Origin: an uncultured Clostridia bacterium
Lineage (GTDB): Bacteria; Cyanobacteriota; Vampirovibrionia; Gastranaerophilales; Gastranaerophilaceae
Direction of reading: 5' to 3'
Assembly (NCBI GenBank): GCA_945946765.1
Contig: CAMEWS010000003.1
Location: 480 to 64,479, forward strand
Length of the DNA stretch: 64,000 nucleotides
The stretch's first letter is position 1. Every line of letters starts with the position of its first letter. The notes beneath the pieces were generated by a model that was given only the letters and a program-made list of their open reading frames with translations, made no database searches and had not been told where the DNA came from. Below are positions 29,915-45,661 of the stretch, in pieces. The translations under genes and the position numbers were made by a program.

Positions 29915-30369
29915 TTATTATGGTGGGGGTTAACGTACAGCTTAACACTCTATATTCTCAAAAATGCTGCATAGACTAGGTTTTTAGATATTTTTCACCC
30001 TCAATTTTTATATAGCGATTTTTGCAAATCCTTTCGTCAAAAAACTGTATGTCATTTTTTGAATTTGTCTGATTTTATCTGACTTTTTAGAAAGGTTTGT
30101 AGATTTCTAACGTCTAACAAAAGGCAACTGCATTCACAGTATATAAAATTTTTTCGCAATCTCCTGTATTTATTAGTCATTTATACTCACAAAAAAATTA
30201 TGATTTCCGAAAGCATAATGACTACATTTTTGTGCATAGCAACTACACGGACATACACAAAAACTACAGTTCTGAAATCTTGAAATGTCTGATTTTGAGT
30301 GAGTTTATAGAAAAAACACTACAAAACTACAGTTTTGAAAAACAATAATATATTTGAAATATTTATTTG

Positions 30370-30714
30370 CTAGGCAGGGAGCTTATCTACAGACAAAGTG
30401 TATCCTAAGCCGTTTAGAATTTTGGTTATGGTCGTGAAGTTTGGCGATGTTTTTGTTTTTCCATGCAGCAAATCAACAAGATTTGCTCTGTTCATACCGA
30501 CCTGCTCAGCAAATTCTTTGACCGAACCGCGTGCTTTTATGACGTATTCCAACCCGCGATAGAACGCGCTGTAATCTCCGGTTTCAATGTAATCTTTTAT
30601 AGTTTCAGACAACCATGCTTGCTGAAAATCAGGGTCTTTTAGTTTTGCTTGCATATCTTCGTCGAAAGTCATACAACTTTCAAGATATTTACGTTGTTTG
30701 TCAGTAAGTTCCAT
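30370..30714 (-). CDS. higA: HigA-family antitoxin (addiction module antidote protein, HTH)
   Basis: 114 aa with C-terminal HTH FAEQVGMNRANLVDLLHGKTKTSPNFTTITKILNGLGYTLSV. Sits downstream of a RelE/HigB-like gene in the inverted higBA order. Confidence 0.78.
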   Translation of the reverse strand: MELTDKQRKYLESCMTFDEDMQAKLKDPDFQQAWLSETIKDYIETGDYSAFYRGLEYVIKARGSVKEFAEQVGMNRANLVDLLHGKTKTSPNFTTITKILNGLGYTLSVDKLPA

Positions 30715-30736
30715 TGTTATATTCCTTTCAGTATTA

Positions 30737-31057
30737 TTATTTACTCAAAAAATCTTCTAAATATTGGTTAGCTTTTTGAATCGTTTTCTTTTGTTCTTTT
30801 TTATCACTTCCTGCAAGAAAAAGAACTAATGTTGTGTCCAAATCAAGATAATATATTCTGTACCCTTTGCCAAAATCCATCCTTAGTTCAGACAATTCAG
30901 AGTTTTGGAGCTTTTTGTGGTCGCCATAATTTCCGTCTTTTAGCTTATCGACCCGTTTAGCCACGCGCACACGAACAGACATATCAAGTTCATTGTACCA
31001 TTCAGAATACGGGCATTTTCCGTCTTGGGTTTTGTAGTATAGAATCTGTTTTTCCAT
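30737..31057 (-). CDS. higB: HigB/RelE-family toxin (addiction module killer protein)
   Basis: 106 aa. The pattern YKTQDGKCPYSEWYNELD...RVAKRVDKLKDGNYGDHKKL...LSELRMDFGKGYRIYY is typical of the killer-protein family. Confidence 0.78.
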   Translation of the reverse strand: MEKQILYYKTQDGKCPYSEWYNELDMSVRVRVAKRVDKLKDGNYGDHKKLQNSELSELRMDFGKGYRIYYLDLDTTLVLFLAGSDKKEQKKTIQKANQYLEDFLSK

Positions 31058-31076
31058 AAATGCTCCTGATATTATC

Positions 31077-43810: not shown

Positions 43811-43833
43811 TTTATCTCTATTTTATTGATTCA

Positions 43834-43868
43834 CAGCCGTGTAATTCAAAATTGCACGGCTGATTTTC
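43834..43868 (+). terminator. rho-independent terminator between the two recombinase genes
   Basis: CAGCCGTG-TAATTCAAAATTG-CACGGCTG followed by ATTTTCT. Confidence 0.55.
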
Positions 43869-44014
43869 TCTTATAATTCAAGCATTTTCAGGTTTTTTGC
43901 GTGAAACTGGACGACAAGCCTACTTGTAATTTTTCAAATATAGGTAAAAAATAAAACAACAATCCGTCTGAACTTAATGTTCAAATTTTTCAGAAATATC
44001 AAAGGAAATCGCCC

Positions 44015-45661
44015 ATGAAAAACAAACAAGCCGTTATCTACGCACGTGTGTCCAGCAGAGAACAAGAGCGGGAAGGCTTTTCAATACCCGCACAACTAAA
44101 ACTCCTCAAAGAATACGCTTTCAAGCATGGTTTGGAAGTTGTAAGAGAGTATTCTGACGCGGAAACCGCCAAAAAAGCAGGTCGTACAAACTATAATCTT
44201 ATGCTCGATTTTCTCAAAACAAACCCTGAAATAAAGACAGTTCTTATAGAAAAGACCGATAGGCTATACAGAAACTTTAAAGACTATGTAACTCTCGAAG
44301 ATTATGACCTTGAGATACATTTAGTTAAAGAAAACACTATAATCAGCAAAAATTCCAAATCTCATGACAAATTTATACACGGCATAAAAGTCCTTATGGC
44401 AAAGAATTATATAGACAACCTCTCCGAAGAAGTTTCAAAAGGACTCCACGAGGGGTTAGAACAGGGCTACTGGCCATTCAATCCGCCATATGGCTACAAA
44501 AGAGGAGAAAAGAAGAATTTGTACATTGACCCGACACGTGTTCTGTTTATAAGAAAAGCATTTGAACTCTTTTCAACCGGCAAATATTCGCTAAGAAAGC
44601 TTTGCGAAAAGCTTTTTGAAGACGGATATTATTATCAAGCACAAAAACCTAAAATCACAAAAACAACCTTAGAAGCAATACTAAAAAACGTCATTTATAC
44701 AGGACAAATGCGTTGCAATGGTGTTATATATCAAGGCAAACACCCCGCAATTGTCAGCCTGGAACTCTTTGAAAAGACACAACAAGCATTCAACAAGGTA
44801 AATACATCAAAAGTACGCAAAAACTTTGATTTTCTCTATCCCGGAGTTGCAAAATGCGCTGTATGCGGTTATTCAATATGCGGAGAAAGGAAGAAATACA
44901 ACAAAGTATACTACCGTTGTTCTCACAATGACCCGACTTGCACAAACACATTGTGTATTTCGGAAAAAGAAATGACATCAGCCCTATACAGACATCTTTC
45001 ACGTATAGCATTGGACAAACACCTGTATGAACTGGTCAAAATATCGCTTGAACTAAGCCTAAAAGATGAACAAGACTATCACAAAAAAGAGATAGAAAGG
45101 CTGAATAAAGAGATTGAAGAGTGTACAGACACCTTAAAAAAGATGTATTTAGACCAATTGAACAGTGTAATAGACACTGATTTATGGATTTCATTCAAAA
45201 ACGAATATGAACTAAAGCTAAACAAACTAAACAACGAACTTCAAAAATATCAAAATGCCAATTTAGATTATATGAATACAGGAATCAAGATTTTAGACGT
45301 ATGTAAAAAGGCAAGCATGCCTTATTTTGAAATCACACCTCAAATAGTTGCACAATTGGTTAGAATGACATACTCTTCTGTCACTGTCAAAGACAAAAAG
45401 GTAAAAATGCAGTTCAAAGAGCCTTATGCAACACTGGAAAAATTAATAAAACTCGCAAAACAAGGTATAGCCGAATCAGGATATGAGGAATTCTTCAAAA
45501 GCATTATGGTTCTAAAGGACACAGACAACAAGGCATTAAAAAAGAGCCTTAAAGGCTCTTCTTTGGGTAATCCGAACAGTGTTATCCGTACGGAATGGTG
45601 GGCCGCAGTGGACTCGAACCACCGACCTCACGCTTATCAGGCGTGCGCTCTAACCACCTGA
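44015..45661 (+). CDS. large serine recombinase (CcrB-position paralogue); 3' end overlaps tRNA-Ile antisense
   Basis: AVIYARVSSREQEREGFSIPAQ catalytic N-terminus, a recombinase domain, and the zinc-ribbon CAVCGY...YYRCSHNDPTC. The last 22 codons (WWAAVDSNHRPHAYQACALTT) are read from the tRNA sequence. Confidence 0.9.
   Translation: MKNKQAVIYARVSSREQEREGFSIPAQLKLLKEYAFKHGLEVVREYSDAETAKKAGRTNYNLMLDFLKTNPEIKTVLIEKTDRLYRNFKDYVTLEDYDLEIHLVKENTIISKNSKSHDKFIHGIKVLMAKNYIDNLSEEVSKGLHEGLEQGYWPFNPPYGYKRGEKKNLYIDPTRVLFIRKAFELFSTGKYSLRKLCEKLFEDGYYYQAQKPKITKTTLEAILKNVIYTGQMRCNGVIYQGKHPAIVSLELFEKTQQAFNKVNTSKVRKNFDFLYPGVAKCAVCGYSICGERKKYNKVYYRCSHNDPTCTNTLCISEKEMTSALYRHLSRIALDKHLYELVKISLELSLKDEQDYHKKEIERLNKEIEECTDTLKKMYLDQLNSVIDTDLWISFKNEYELKLNKLNNELQKYQNANLDYMNTGIKILDVCKKASMPYFEITPQIVAQLVRMTYSSVTVKDKKVKMQFKEPYATLEKLIKLAKQGIAESGYEEFFKSIMVLKDTDNKALKKSLKGSSLGNPNSVIRTEWWAAVDSNHRPHAYQACALTT

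Follow-up and report, generated by a model that had tools for sequence, protein, structure and literature searches.

This study provided evidence that the analysed window, a stretch of 64,000 nucleotides from an uncultured Gastranaerophilales bacterium of the pig gut, contains a genomic island of 15.7 kb that is real and still mobile. The segment at 29920-45602 is very probably a site-specifically integrated, excisable and SCC-like large-serine-recombinase (LSR) island of Candidatus Gastranaerophilales (Melainabacteria), with an element length of 15,675 bp. The sequence-only reading had proposed an integrated island of about 15.7 kb at tRNA-Ile, and this was borne out: the tRNA gene was placed at 45596-45672, both recombination products were found at the boundaries, and both map within 1 bp of the ends proposed. 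The flanks, described there as envelope and pilus genes, were specified: GT9 heptosyltransferase and GH57 genes lie to the left of the island, and those for DUF6812, PilC and PilB to its right.

Both ends of the island carry the 8-bp repeat ATGGTGGG (29920-29927 and 45595-45602), and the repeat search found none longer than 8 bp at these ends. The heptamer TGGTGGG, which had been reported at both ends, is indeed present there (29921-29927 and 45596-45602), although the true identity extends to 8 bp; its count in the window (3 vs 3.4 expected) is at chance level. The position of the repeat is nevertheless not due to chance, since the empty-site and reciprocal joints fall exactly on it. The nature of the heptamer as a serine-recombinase crossover core, and not a tyrosine-integrase direct repeat, had escaped the sequence-only reading.

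The junctions were found on short assembled contigs from public pig-gut metagenomes, with 22-47 nt on the far side. The empty site, the first check suggested for the island, was present in related strains: on contigs of runs X2 and X10, which belong to different studies, position 29919 is joined directly to 45595, and 8 letters fit both sides. The circular-junction check also gave a positive result: one contig of run X20 joins 45594 to 29920, again with 8 letters that fit both sides, as in a circle or tandem junction, and its depth equals that of the island contigs. This head-to-tail junction, present in one of the 8 runs examined for it, could represent a tandem dimer instead of a free circle. 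Eight island-free runs showed depths of 2-32 on both flanks and near-zero depth across most of 29953-45576, with a few higher bins where related elements match. The compositional check was uninformative, as the GC contrast is weak (33.2% in the island vs 35.2% elsewhere) and the peak of tetranucleotide distance lies off-centre relative to the island.

The native terminator of tRNA-Ile (9-bp stem, 6-nt loop and T run; one found vs 0.2 in shuffles) directly follows the CCA end in the empty-site contigs and now lies 15.7 kb away from the tRNA gene, directly left of attL. The replacement terminator lies 35 nt past the CCA end, within the LSR2 coding sequence, and is kept in 14/14 distinct Gastranaerophilales-type trailers (13 loci and the window). 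It was found in 35/72 trailers across the clade, compared with 3.8% of shuffles, and one pair of its stem varies on both sides (A-U, C-G, U-A) in a compensatory manner. Read directly, attP forms an imperfect inverted repeat, with the arms AGTGTTAxxxGTACG facing each other across the core GG; the P arm encodes NSVIRTE, the C-terminus of LSR2, and in the relatives L001 and L016 an arm similar to P' comes after the core at junctions of the attP type.

Table 1. Coordinates of the island, its attachment sites and its genes in the window.
Feature	Position	Strand	Basis
Native intrinsic terminator of tRNA-Ile (B arm of attB/attL)	29893..29916	-	terminator scan
attL core ATGGTGGG	29920..29927	+	both joints report 8 letters fitting either side
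P' arm of attP, GGTTAACGTACAGCTTAACACTC, island left end	29928..29950	+	mirrors P arm
HigA-like antitoxin (HTH)	30370..30714	-	PF21716 E 1.6e-8, 34.8 bits; HTH_3
HigB/Gp49-like toxin	30737..31057	-	PF05973 E 4.4e-5, 23.9 bits, exactly the gathering score
RmrA-like XRE-HTH + M78 (ImmA/IrrE) metallopeptidase fusion	31176..32261	-	PADLOC RmrA E 2.5e-64
215-aa ORF, candidate RmrT-type toxin	32251..32898	-	position only; overlaps RmrA start by 11 nt
Papain-fold cysteine-peptidase-like protein, 554 aa	33155..34819	-	homologue alignment, AF2, Foldseek
57-aa partner ORF of peptidase cassette	34820..34993	-	small-ORF + large-ORF pairing
MerR/HspR-like regulator, backbone	35143..35508	-	MerR_1 E 9e-10; HspR E 4e-12 (NCBIfam)
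WG-repeat lipoprotein	35638..36675	+	WG_beta_rep E 5.8e-40; N-terminal signal + Cys read directly
203-aa membrane-anchored protein	36690..37301	+	sole match phrog_806 E 8e-5
Zinc-ribbon + 2x TM2 membrane protein	37443..37967	+	TM2 E 2.8e-22; Zn_ribbon_3
Double zinc-ribbon membrane protein	37979..38437	+	DZR + Zn_ribbon_3
L12-C-like domain + zinc ribbons + superinfection-immunity (Imm) membrane domain	38444..39268	+	Imm_superinfect E 2.3e-17
181-aa ORF	39393..39938	+	equal-length ORF, same position, in L006
36-aa ORF, backbone, overlaps helicase start	40483..40593	+	translation
Cch-like (DUF927) P-loop replicative helicase	40586..42286	+	DUF927 E 5e-8
LSR1, inner large serine recombinase, 485 aa	42353..43810	+	Resolvase, Recombinase, Zn_ribbon_recom domains
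LSR2, outer large serine recombinase, 548 aa	44015..45661	+	Resolvase, Recombinase, Zn_ribbon_recom domains
Replacement intrinsic terminator for tRNA-Ile, AAGAGCC-TTTAA-GGCTCTT + T6	45538..45560	-	RNAfold of trailer
P arm of attP, ..ACAGTGTTATCCGTACGGA	45570..45594	+	inverted symmetry with P' arm, direct reading
attR core ATGGTGGG	45595..45602	+	antisense of tRNA end C70-C72, A73, CCA plus 1 nt
tRNA-Ile(GAT), intact (B' arm)	45596-45672	-	ARAGORN + Rfam

LSR1 and LSR2 are both intact and full length, each with PF00239, PF07508 and PF13408, and are 32% identical to each other; both carry the YxRVSS catalytic motif, whose R11 and S13 are invariant across the family. No tyrosine recombinase (PF00589) was found among the island ORFs with Pfam and PHROGs, and no recombination directionality factor was identified in the island. 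The LSR2 ORF crosses attR and stops within the antisense strand of tRNA-Ile. Its homologues end in ...KWW followed by read-through into the antisense tRNA, and past KWW they diverge according to the sequence after the core. The crossing of the core by the outer recombinase ORF is another feature that the sequence-only reading had not noticed.

The conserved backbone of the element consists of the MerR regulator, the 36-aa ORF, the Cch-homologue helicase, LSR1 and LSR2. The MerR/HspR-like gene is divergent from the rightward operon, which it may control, and a MerR_1 gene occupies the same position in most Gastranaerophilales relatives, while 38-aa ORFs similar to the 36-aa ORF occur in L006 and L002. 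The helicase matched a PHROG primase/helicase family (E 4.9e-8) and NCBIfam SCCmet_Cch1 (E 1.8e-6), and a profile of 30 sequences of its family had PDB 5DGK (SCCmec Cch) as its sole significant match, with an E value of 6.5e-21 over about 300 residues; its AF2 model failed (pLDDT 44). The protein had been listed as a replication-type NTPase, and its homology to SCCmec Cch had not been recognised. No replication origin or iterons were identified in the island.

The cargo of about 10 kb is exchangeable and consists mostly of putative conflict genes, for which gene families suggest a defence activity. The earlier list of genes agreed with Pfam, PADLOC, PHROGs and NCBIfam apart from the flanks and a supposed protease-like pair, and its view of the cargo as toxin–antitoxin (TA), defence-like and exclusion genes was upheld by the RmrA match, the HigB/HigA-like proteins and the Imm_superinfect domain. 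In the type II HigBA pair, the toxin gene comes first, upstream of the HTH antitoxin. The RmrA match spans residues 3-341 of 361 (PADLOC), and this protein also matched Peptidase_M78 (E 1e-20), HTH_3 (E 5e-13) and the NCBIfam spr1629 repressor/antitoxin (E 9e-34). As in RosmerTA, a full-length RmrA-type HTH and M78 antitoxin follows an overlapping upstream ORF; in contrast to RosmerTA, no RmrT model recognises the 215-aa partner, which is a candidate toxin only. No match to it was obtained in Pfam, PADLOC (including the RmrT models), PHROGs or NCBIfam, and RosmerTA toxins are variable and often unrecognisable (PMC10440598).

The protease-like pair itself comprises the 57-aa ORF and the 554-aa papain-fold protein, the 215-aa ORF belonging with the XRE-M78 gene. 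Although 1742 homologues of the 554-aa protein were collected, none has a Pfam domain; the family shows no variation at C188, H292, D334 and D335. Its AF2 model (pLDDT 78.6) matched staphopain and C39 peptidases in Foldseek with a probability of 1.0 and a TM of <=0.62 on the target, and ORF pairs of the 57-aa/554-aa type recur in the unrelated contexts L089 and L092. Among the membrane proteins, the zinc-ribbon module is present in three DNA copies (repeat family D1), and the Imm protein also matched phrog_1039, 'immunity to superinfection' (E 8e-18). The 181-aa ORF had no family match in Pfam, PADLOC, PHROGs or NCBIfam.

The element is a member of a conserved family, which had likewise been missed. 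LSR2 relatives in many phyla adjoin the 3' ends of tRNA genes, including Ile, Ala, Leu, Gln, Asn and others. In most Gastranaerophilales-type loci, the backbone adjoins tRNA-Ile, tRNA-Ala or tRNA-Leu, and in these loci LSR2 always reads antisense into the tRNA. Only in the Gastranaerophilales subclade is LSR2 preceded by LSR1; L001 has a related LSR2 without LSR1 or helicase, and LSR1 may thus be dispensable.

In the proposed explanation, large-serine-recombinase chemistry would insert the island at the acceptor/CCA end of tRNA-Ile(GAT), with the crossover taking place within the 8-bp core common to attP and attB. Because of the symmetry of the attP arms, the crossover is most likely at the GG antisense to C71-C72. 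Each excision would remove 15,675 bp from the chromosome. Upon integration, tRNA-Ile is left intact, the trailer and terminator alone are displaced, and the element supplies a new tRNA terminator hidden in the last LSR2 codons. As the LSR2 ORF runs through the crossover, its last 15-21 residues are predicted to differ between the excised and integrated forms. LSR1 and LSR2 may work jointly, in the manner of CcrA and CcrB. The architecture of the backbone resembles the ccr locus of SCCmec pattern 1, which would imply autonomous replication of the excised circle, and the island may also move from cell to cell.

Four other explanations were considered. It is scarcely credible that the island is a non-mobile, strain-specific segment deleted in other strains, with a coincidental 8-bp repeat. 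The chance frequency of the heptamer and the weak compositional contrast would suit this idea; however, the deletion ends in two independent runs lie exactly on the repeat, with the tRNA and then the terminator restored, a reciprocal junction exists, the boundary holds two recombinases, and the family uses the same tRNA position in other loci. The non-mobile reading is contradicted by the empty-site (X2, X10) and reciprocal (X20) joints. The observation of both recombination products also argues against a decayed prophage, that is, a temperate-phage remnant that has lost its autonomy and retained the integrase end, the immunity genes and morons, which we regard as very unlikely indeed. Distant LSR2 relatives do occupy terminal positions on IMG/VR viral contigs of 34-45 kb, and there are PHROG matches for the regulator, superinfection immunity and primase/helicase, but LSR1, LSR2 and the helicase are all full length, the compact backbone is intact in most Gastranaerophilales-type loci at three tRNA targets, and no remnants of structural or lysis genes were found (capsid, portal, terminase or tail; PHROG and Pfam searches of all island ORFs).

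Conjugal transfer as an integrative mobilisable element, by a relaxase and a type IV secretion system (T4SS) encoded elsewhere, is very unlikely. An excision module without transfer genes is found in many such elements, and the 274-aa protein of the island weakly matches an NCBIfam ICE pilin-like family (E 0.0077, below the cut-off); yet the Pfam and NCBIfam searches of the island gave no relaxase, oriT, coupling protein or T4SS component, and the contexts of the relatives are without sign of conjugation. A phage satellite, namely a PICI/SaPI-like parasite excised and replicated via its Rep-type helicase on induction of a helper prophage and then packaged by the helper, is unlikely but deserves serious consideration. 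The helicase is of the Cch/SaPIbov1-Rep type (PMC7581432), and the 15.7 kb size and the regulator-rich, defence-rich content fit. Further, similar islands in L094 and L095 form a tandem with a prophage of the tailed type, in which tape measure, baseplate, endolysin and DGR reverse transcriptase genes are present. The L095 prophage has an LSR of its own (34% identity), located at the tRNA-Ala core ATGGTGGA that the island there also uses. Conversely, an att site in common with phages does not prove dependence on them, no small terminase, capsid-remodelling, portal or head-tail genes were recognised in the window, and no prophage adjoins the island there.

Returning to the SCC-like LSR island, we tentatively offer a joint reading, which we consider plausible rather than probable. 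A cross-phylum clade of large serine integrases would have as its special target the acceptor/CCA tip of tRNA genes, which is nearly universal, with the attP core in its own last codons (...KWW in the gut subclade) and the replacement terminator in the same coding stretch. In Gastranaerophilales, it would have acquired another recombinase along with a Cch-type helicase, giving rise to an SCC-like, self-replicating defence cassette, standing in tandem with same-core prophages and maybe mobilised by them as a satellite. If this is true, SCC-type elements are an ancient design spanning Gram-negative-type hosts and not a staphylococcal peculiarity.

Serine integrases are preferred tools of genome engineering, and enzymes targeting the conserved acceptor/CCA tip may provide landing sites that occur naturally and are harmless in a large number of bacteria. 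The overlap of the att core, recombinase C-terminus and tRNA terminator in about 60 bp is a compact design. The layout of a helicase and a recombinase pair carries the SCCmec design far beyond staphylococci. With the island, the reason for having two recombinases and the question of replication in cassettes of this type can be addressed in an independent system. For Gastranaerophilales, a family of mobile defence cassettes is defined, and an uncharacterised two-gene peptidase module with >1,700 homologues is flagged.

Concerning known systems, tRNA-linked islands are the textbook case of tyrosine integrases. The present island resembles these classical islands and prophages in occupying a tRNA 3' end, preserving the tRNA, placing the integrase gene beside it and stacking in tandem; it differs in having 8 bp of identity instead of 15-50 bp, no tyrosine integrase, and a crossover at the acceptor/CCA tip that leaves no displaced tRNA fragment. 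In Myxococcus phage Mx8, the attP core lies in the 3' end of intP and integration swaps the C-terminal tail of the integrase, as predicted for LSR2. However, Mx8 Int is a tyrosine recombinase for which the effect of the swap on activity was shown experimentally, whereas LSR2 is a serine recombinase and its swap is predicted only.

Among serine recombinases, ORF14 of the filamentous phiRSM phages of Ralstonia integrates at a tRNA 3' end, and the attP/attB core TGGCGGAGAGGGT, located beside the recombinase gene, is antisense to the CCA-containing 3' terminus of the tRNA (PMC3816273). Unlike the island, phiRSM is a 9-kb inovirus with a small resolvase/invertase-type enzyme, a tRNA-Ser target and a core between genes instead of inside the recombinase ORF. 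The AICEs of Mycobacterium are likewise large-serine-recombinase islands in a tRNA gene (tRNA-Leu), and their authors termed such insertion rare (PMC3218068), whereas in the LSR2 clade, which is large and extends over many phyla, it is the norm. The AICEs differ from the island in being conjugative elements of actinomycetes, with Tra/Rep genes and only one recombinase.

The closest parallels in gene order are with SCCmec. SCC pattern 1 of staphylococci has the order LP1413-Cch-CcrA-CcrB, in which LP1413 holds the position of the 36-aa ORF, so that a small ORF, a DUF927 Cch-type helicase and two adjacent paralogous large serine recombinases follow in the same order (PMC7581432). In both cases, insertion takes place at the far 3' end of a housekeeping gene that is conserved and is not inactivated, and a short shared core is present instead of long repeats; both lack transfer genes and carry variable cargo. 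Whereas staphylococcal SCC integrates at the rlmH (orfX) 3' end, the island has a tRNA CCA end as its target and a Gram-negative-type Melainabacterium as its host; its recombinases occupy the outermost part of the element, with the LSR2 ORF spanning the att core, and the cargo is of the defence and TA type instead of resistance genes. Since LSR1 and LSR2 score 73-78 bits against NCBIfam CcrB, far below the cut-off of 900, the resemblance to SCC is one of architecture and helicase homology, not of orthology.

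This study provides evidence from gut metagenomes that the 15.7-kb island beside tRNA-Ile(GAT) is found integrated, absent and joined end to end. The window gave matches in pig-gut and other gut metagenomes, and island-free strains were recognized in eight runs that contained both flanks at a depth of 2–32 and had near-zero depth across most of 29953-45576, with a few bins raised by related elements. Contigs of runs X2 and X10, from two studies, carried the empty-site joint, which passes from 29919 to 45595, skips 15,675 bases and leaves 8 letters that fit both sides; this is the empty attB that the sequence-only reading had proposed to look for. 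In run X20, the island was present at a depth of 2–5 with its flanks nearly absent, and a 630-nt contig ran from 45004 to 45594 and then continued at 29920, a backward step of 15,675 bases at which 8 letters are shared. The depth of this contig (4.96) equals that of the island contigs, and a joint of this kind would arise from a circle, the other product proposed for checking, or from a tandem dimer.

Both joints come from assembled contigs with a far side of 22–47 nt. The head-to-tail joint was found in one of eight island-holding runs, and no further circular junction was seen in X23–X26. As the two reciprocal joints map within one base of the boundaries proposed earlier, the integrated-island reading was real and correctly interpreted, and we regard the integration and excision of this island as very likely. 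One contig of run X16 joins 28665 to 45402, off the att sites, with a shorter side of 76 nt and no shared letters, which may be an artefact of assembly or may stem from a related strain that is arranged differently.

A single tRNA was placed by ARAGORN and Rfam, and Rfam gave no match besides it. The heptamer TGGTGGG that had been pointed out at the two ends is present at 29921-29927 and 45596-45602; however, three copies were observed in the window against 3.4 expected, so that its recurrence alone is no proof, and by direct reading the identity extends to 8 bp, ATGGTGGG, at 29920-29927 (attL) and 45595-45602 (attR). The compositional contrast suggested as a further check (GC, k-mers) did not mark the island: its GC content (33.2% vs. 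35.2%) and a modest tetranucleotide deviation, off-centre relative to the island, are too weak to serve as boundary evidence. When 29928-45594 is removed, the native intrinsic terminator comes immediately after the tRNA CCA end.

Coordinates of the features in the window
Feature	Position	Strand	Remark
Native intrinsic terminator	29916-29893	minus	directly left of left repeat copy; rated good
HigA-like antitoxin	30370-30714	minus	follows toxin
HigB/Gp49-like toxin	30737-31057	minus	toxin first
RmrA-type HTH + M78 protein	31176-32261	minus	full-length; E 2.5e-64
215-aa upstream ORF	32251-32898	minus	overlaps RmrA gene; without match in databases searched
554-aa papain-fold protein	33155-34819	minus	
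57-aa ORF	34820-34993	minus	
WG-repeat lipoprotein	35638-36675	plus	
Three consecutive zinc-ribbon membrane proteins	37443-39268	plus	
Conserved 36-aa ORF	40483-40593		overlaps helicase start
LSR2 (outer large serine recombinase)	44015-45661		no stop ahead of tRNA; last 22 codons antisense to tRNA
Replacement terminator	45560-45538	tRNA strand	AAGAGCC-TTTAA-GGCTCTT + six T
tRNA-Ile(GAT)	45596-45672	minus	ARAGORN and Rfam

The island supplies a substitute for the displaced tRNA terminator. The replacement, examined using RNAfold and our own scan against shuffles, lies 35 nt beyond the CCA, within the LSR2 codons KKSLKGS; a generic promoter/terminator scan missed it because greedy stem extension ran into the T run. 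A hairpin with a T run was found in all 14 distinct Gastranaerophilales-type trailers (13 loci and the window) and in 35 of 72 trailers across the recombinase clade, vs. 3.8% of dinucleotide shuffles. One stem pair is changed on both sides (A-U, C-G, U-A), 92% of stem cells are paired vs. 16–62% in slid controls, and the stem nucleotides are kept while the encoded residues vary (KKSLKGS, KKEPEGS, KKAPEGA). The replacement keeps tRNA expression normal, and it should also halt antisense transcription driven from the tRNA into LSR2.

Upstream of tRNA-Ile and outside the island, the first 22 nt of the tRNA recur at 45753-45776, and 45693-45707 is the reverse complement of the D-arm/anticodon-stem segment 45641-45655, which would allow pairing between the leader and the body of the tRNA. 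The leader and tRNA together fold with z = -4.5, and the arrangement (45673-45780) also occurs in the related locus L006 (11660-11760) and in island-free strains. The segment may have arisen as a decayed copy of a tRNA, or it may be a structured leader of the pre-tRNA.

The recombination site itself is part of LSR2. Among the 4,815 LSR2 homologues collected, the close ones all end in ...C-x-K-W-W, and the remainder is set by the sequence beyond the core: AAVDSNHRPH... at tRNA-Ile, R(L/I)GDSNS at tRNA-Ala, A followed by a stop at tRNA-Leu, and different again where the end of another element adjoins the core. The two W codons, TGGTGG, are antisense to A73-CCA together with C71-C72, and the core thus lies within the recombinase's own reading frame. 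Read directly, the attP junction of the excised form (45570-45602 + 29928-29950) has mirrored arms, AGTGTTATC-CGTACG ... CGTACAGCTTAACACT, which centre on the GG of the core, as a site for a large serine recombinase is expected to look. The LSR2 tail reads ...WWAAVDSNHRPHAYQACALTT in the integrated state and is predicted to read ...WWGLTYSLTLYILKNAA in the excised form. The homologues P0049 and P0053 and the relative's locus L016 have tails, (R)(F/L)TYSL.L....A, very similar to the predicted one, and in them a P'-type arm without tRNA comes after the core. At L016 11570-11640 and at another relative's locus, L001 4571-4640, both on larger contigs, the P'-type arm (GGTTGACGTACAGCTT...) follows LSR2 instead of the tRNA, which indicates junctions that are tandem or in attP form. 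When JGI metagenome contigs were scanned for the core with the P' arm pattern, one chance match came up, in a coding region.

Relatives of LSR2 were located in MAGs named Candidatus Gastranaerophilales, Melainabacteria or Vampirovibrio, with a backbone of an opposite-strand MerR, variable membrane cargo, a small ORF, a 560–575-aa DUF927 protein, LSR1 (the inner recombinase), LSR2 and an opposite-strand tRNA, and loci of this type target tRNA Ile(GAT), Ala(TGC) or Leu(TAG). In L006, a related organism carries a sister element at the same pilus locus; its LSR2 is 89% identical, and the 10 kb visible upstream of that LSR2 contain the same cargo genes. A sister island at tRNA-Ile (L002 1-2607) has a cargo region with Tn7/Mu-like transposition genes (TniB-type AAA, Mu-transposase C).

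Across many phyla, including Alphaproteobacteria, Omnitrophota, Planctomycetota, Acidobacteriota, Ignavibacteria, Zixibacteria and Actinomycetes, an opposite-strand tRNA stands right at the recombinase 3' end in approximately 65 of 80 genome loci, and the ORFs usually run 15–110 nt into it; the targets are tRNA Gln, Asn, His, Val, Glu, Met, Asp, Ala and Ile. The cross-phylum members (L009–L088) are 35–45% identical to LSR2, distant members occur at the ends of 34–45 kb viral contigs in IMG/VR, and characterised phage integrases reach no more than about 32% identity. Only within the Gastranaerophilales subclade was LSR2 accompanied by LSR1, the helicase and MerR; the related LSR2 of L001 stands without LSR1 or helicase, next to DUF6876 and a ParB-methyltransferase. 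The clade is broad, and att site, coding sequence and terminator overlap in it unusually compactly.

By family assignment, the earlier description of the cargo as defence-like, toxin–antitoxin and exclusion genes appears fair, as the island encodes HigBA, an RmrA-type protein and a superinfection-immunity domain. RosmerTA toxins are known to be diverse (PMC10440598), and the unmatched 215-aa ORF is thus compatible with this family. The 554-aa protein has 1,742 homologues across phyla, with neither a Pfam domain nor an annotation; C188, H292, D334 and D335 are invariant in the family, and the core of its model (pLDDT 78.6) resembles staphopain and C39 peptidases. The two-gene cassette (a 57–64-aa ORF and an approximately 540-aa papain-fold protein) recurs in L089 (5804-7626) and L092 (5803-7626), in unrelated contexts: one genome has it beside an ATP synthase operon, another beside a ThiF-type cluster. 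The pair is a portable cassette and a candidate uncharacterised conflict system. In contigs of X1, X2, X5, X10 and X26, TTATT stands in place of 33222-33347, just downstream of the 554-aa gene, which suggests a 126-bp indel polymorphism among related cassette copies. Among the zinc-ribbon proteins, two TM2 domains are present in one and the superinfection-immunity domain in another. An 88-nt zinc-ribbon module (CPxCG...C.HCGEW; 37473-37560, 37982-38069 and 38738-38825; 60–75% identity) is repeated at the start of each of the three genes, suggesting that one N-terminal domain was duplicated serially onto different membrane anchors.

Concerning other lifestyles, profile searches of the island ORFs revealed no tyrosine integrase, relaxase, T4SS or phage structural gene, and a prophage remnant, an IME and a simple deletion all rank low. 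That the island lives as a phage satellite is rather unlikely, although islands of the same kind in L094 and L095 are stacked in tandem, each with a tailed prophage; in the window itself, however, no ORF was recognised as a packaging gene. The prophages of these tandem arrangements (L094 10001-21599; L095 10001-21581 with L122, on the same contig) encode a tape measure, baseplate, endolysin and DGR-type reverse transcriptase. The one on the L095 contig has an LSR of its own (34% identical), which adjoins tRNA-Ala at the same core, ATGGTGGA, and every junction is at this core. Stacking of this kind at the site of a serine recombinase implies that a hybrid site took part in the recombination, or that some other route was used.

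Integration by serine recombinases into tRNA genes has been called rare; the stated examples are phiRSM, with its small recombinase, and Mycobacterium AICEs, a group of which sits at tRNA-Leu (PMC3816273, PMC3218068). The phiRSM target is the tRNA-Ser 3' end, with a core that is the antisense of this end including CCA (PMC3816273). In the literature searched, no account was found of this element family, of Gastranaerophilales recombinases or of a clade of LSRs that is devoted to tRNA ends; such islands may already be listed, uncommented, in large island catalogues (PMC12424338).

The replication-type NTPase of the island matched Pfam DUF927 (E 5e-8), a PHROG primase/helicase (E 4.9e-8) and NCBIfam SCCmet_Cch1 (E 1.8e-6). 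An exhaustive search of 1.8 billion representatives gave only 56 relatives, and another homologue search only 5 proteins; an AF2 model built from 5 sequences (pLDDT 44) was too poor for use. Against PDB, the single sequence matched only 5DGK (E 0.0055), and a profile of 30 of the 56 relatives matched the same entry at E 6.5e-21 over approximately 300 residues with nothing else significant; 30 sequences were needed, as a 9-sequence profile gave no match. This entry is Cch, the helicase of pattern-1 SCCmec, whose operon encodes, in this order, a small ssDNA-binding protein, Cch, CcrA and CcrB, and these elements have been argued to be replicative (PMC7581432). Tandem-repeat and repeat searches near the helicase gene of the island revealed no iterons or origin-like array, and we give autonomous replication and cooperation between LSR1 and LSR2 an even chance.

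The two recombinases follow the helicase as paralogues (32% identical). Their scores against the NCBIfam model of CcrB, 73–78 bits, are far under its cut-off of 900, so that orthology to CcrB is unsupported; both score higher on the cyanobacterial excision recombinase XisF, without reaching its cut-off. Strict SCC membership was rejected, as target, host and recombinase orthology are all unlike. The likeness to pattern-1 SCCmec is one of order, in that the 36-aa ORF, the Cch-type helicase and two paralogous LSRs make up an SCC-like layout. Taken together, the island is a serine-recombinase, SCC-like and putative defence cassette at a tRNA tip, and probably replicative.
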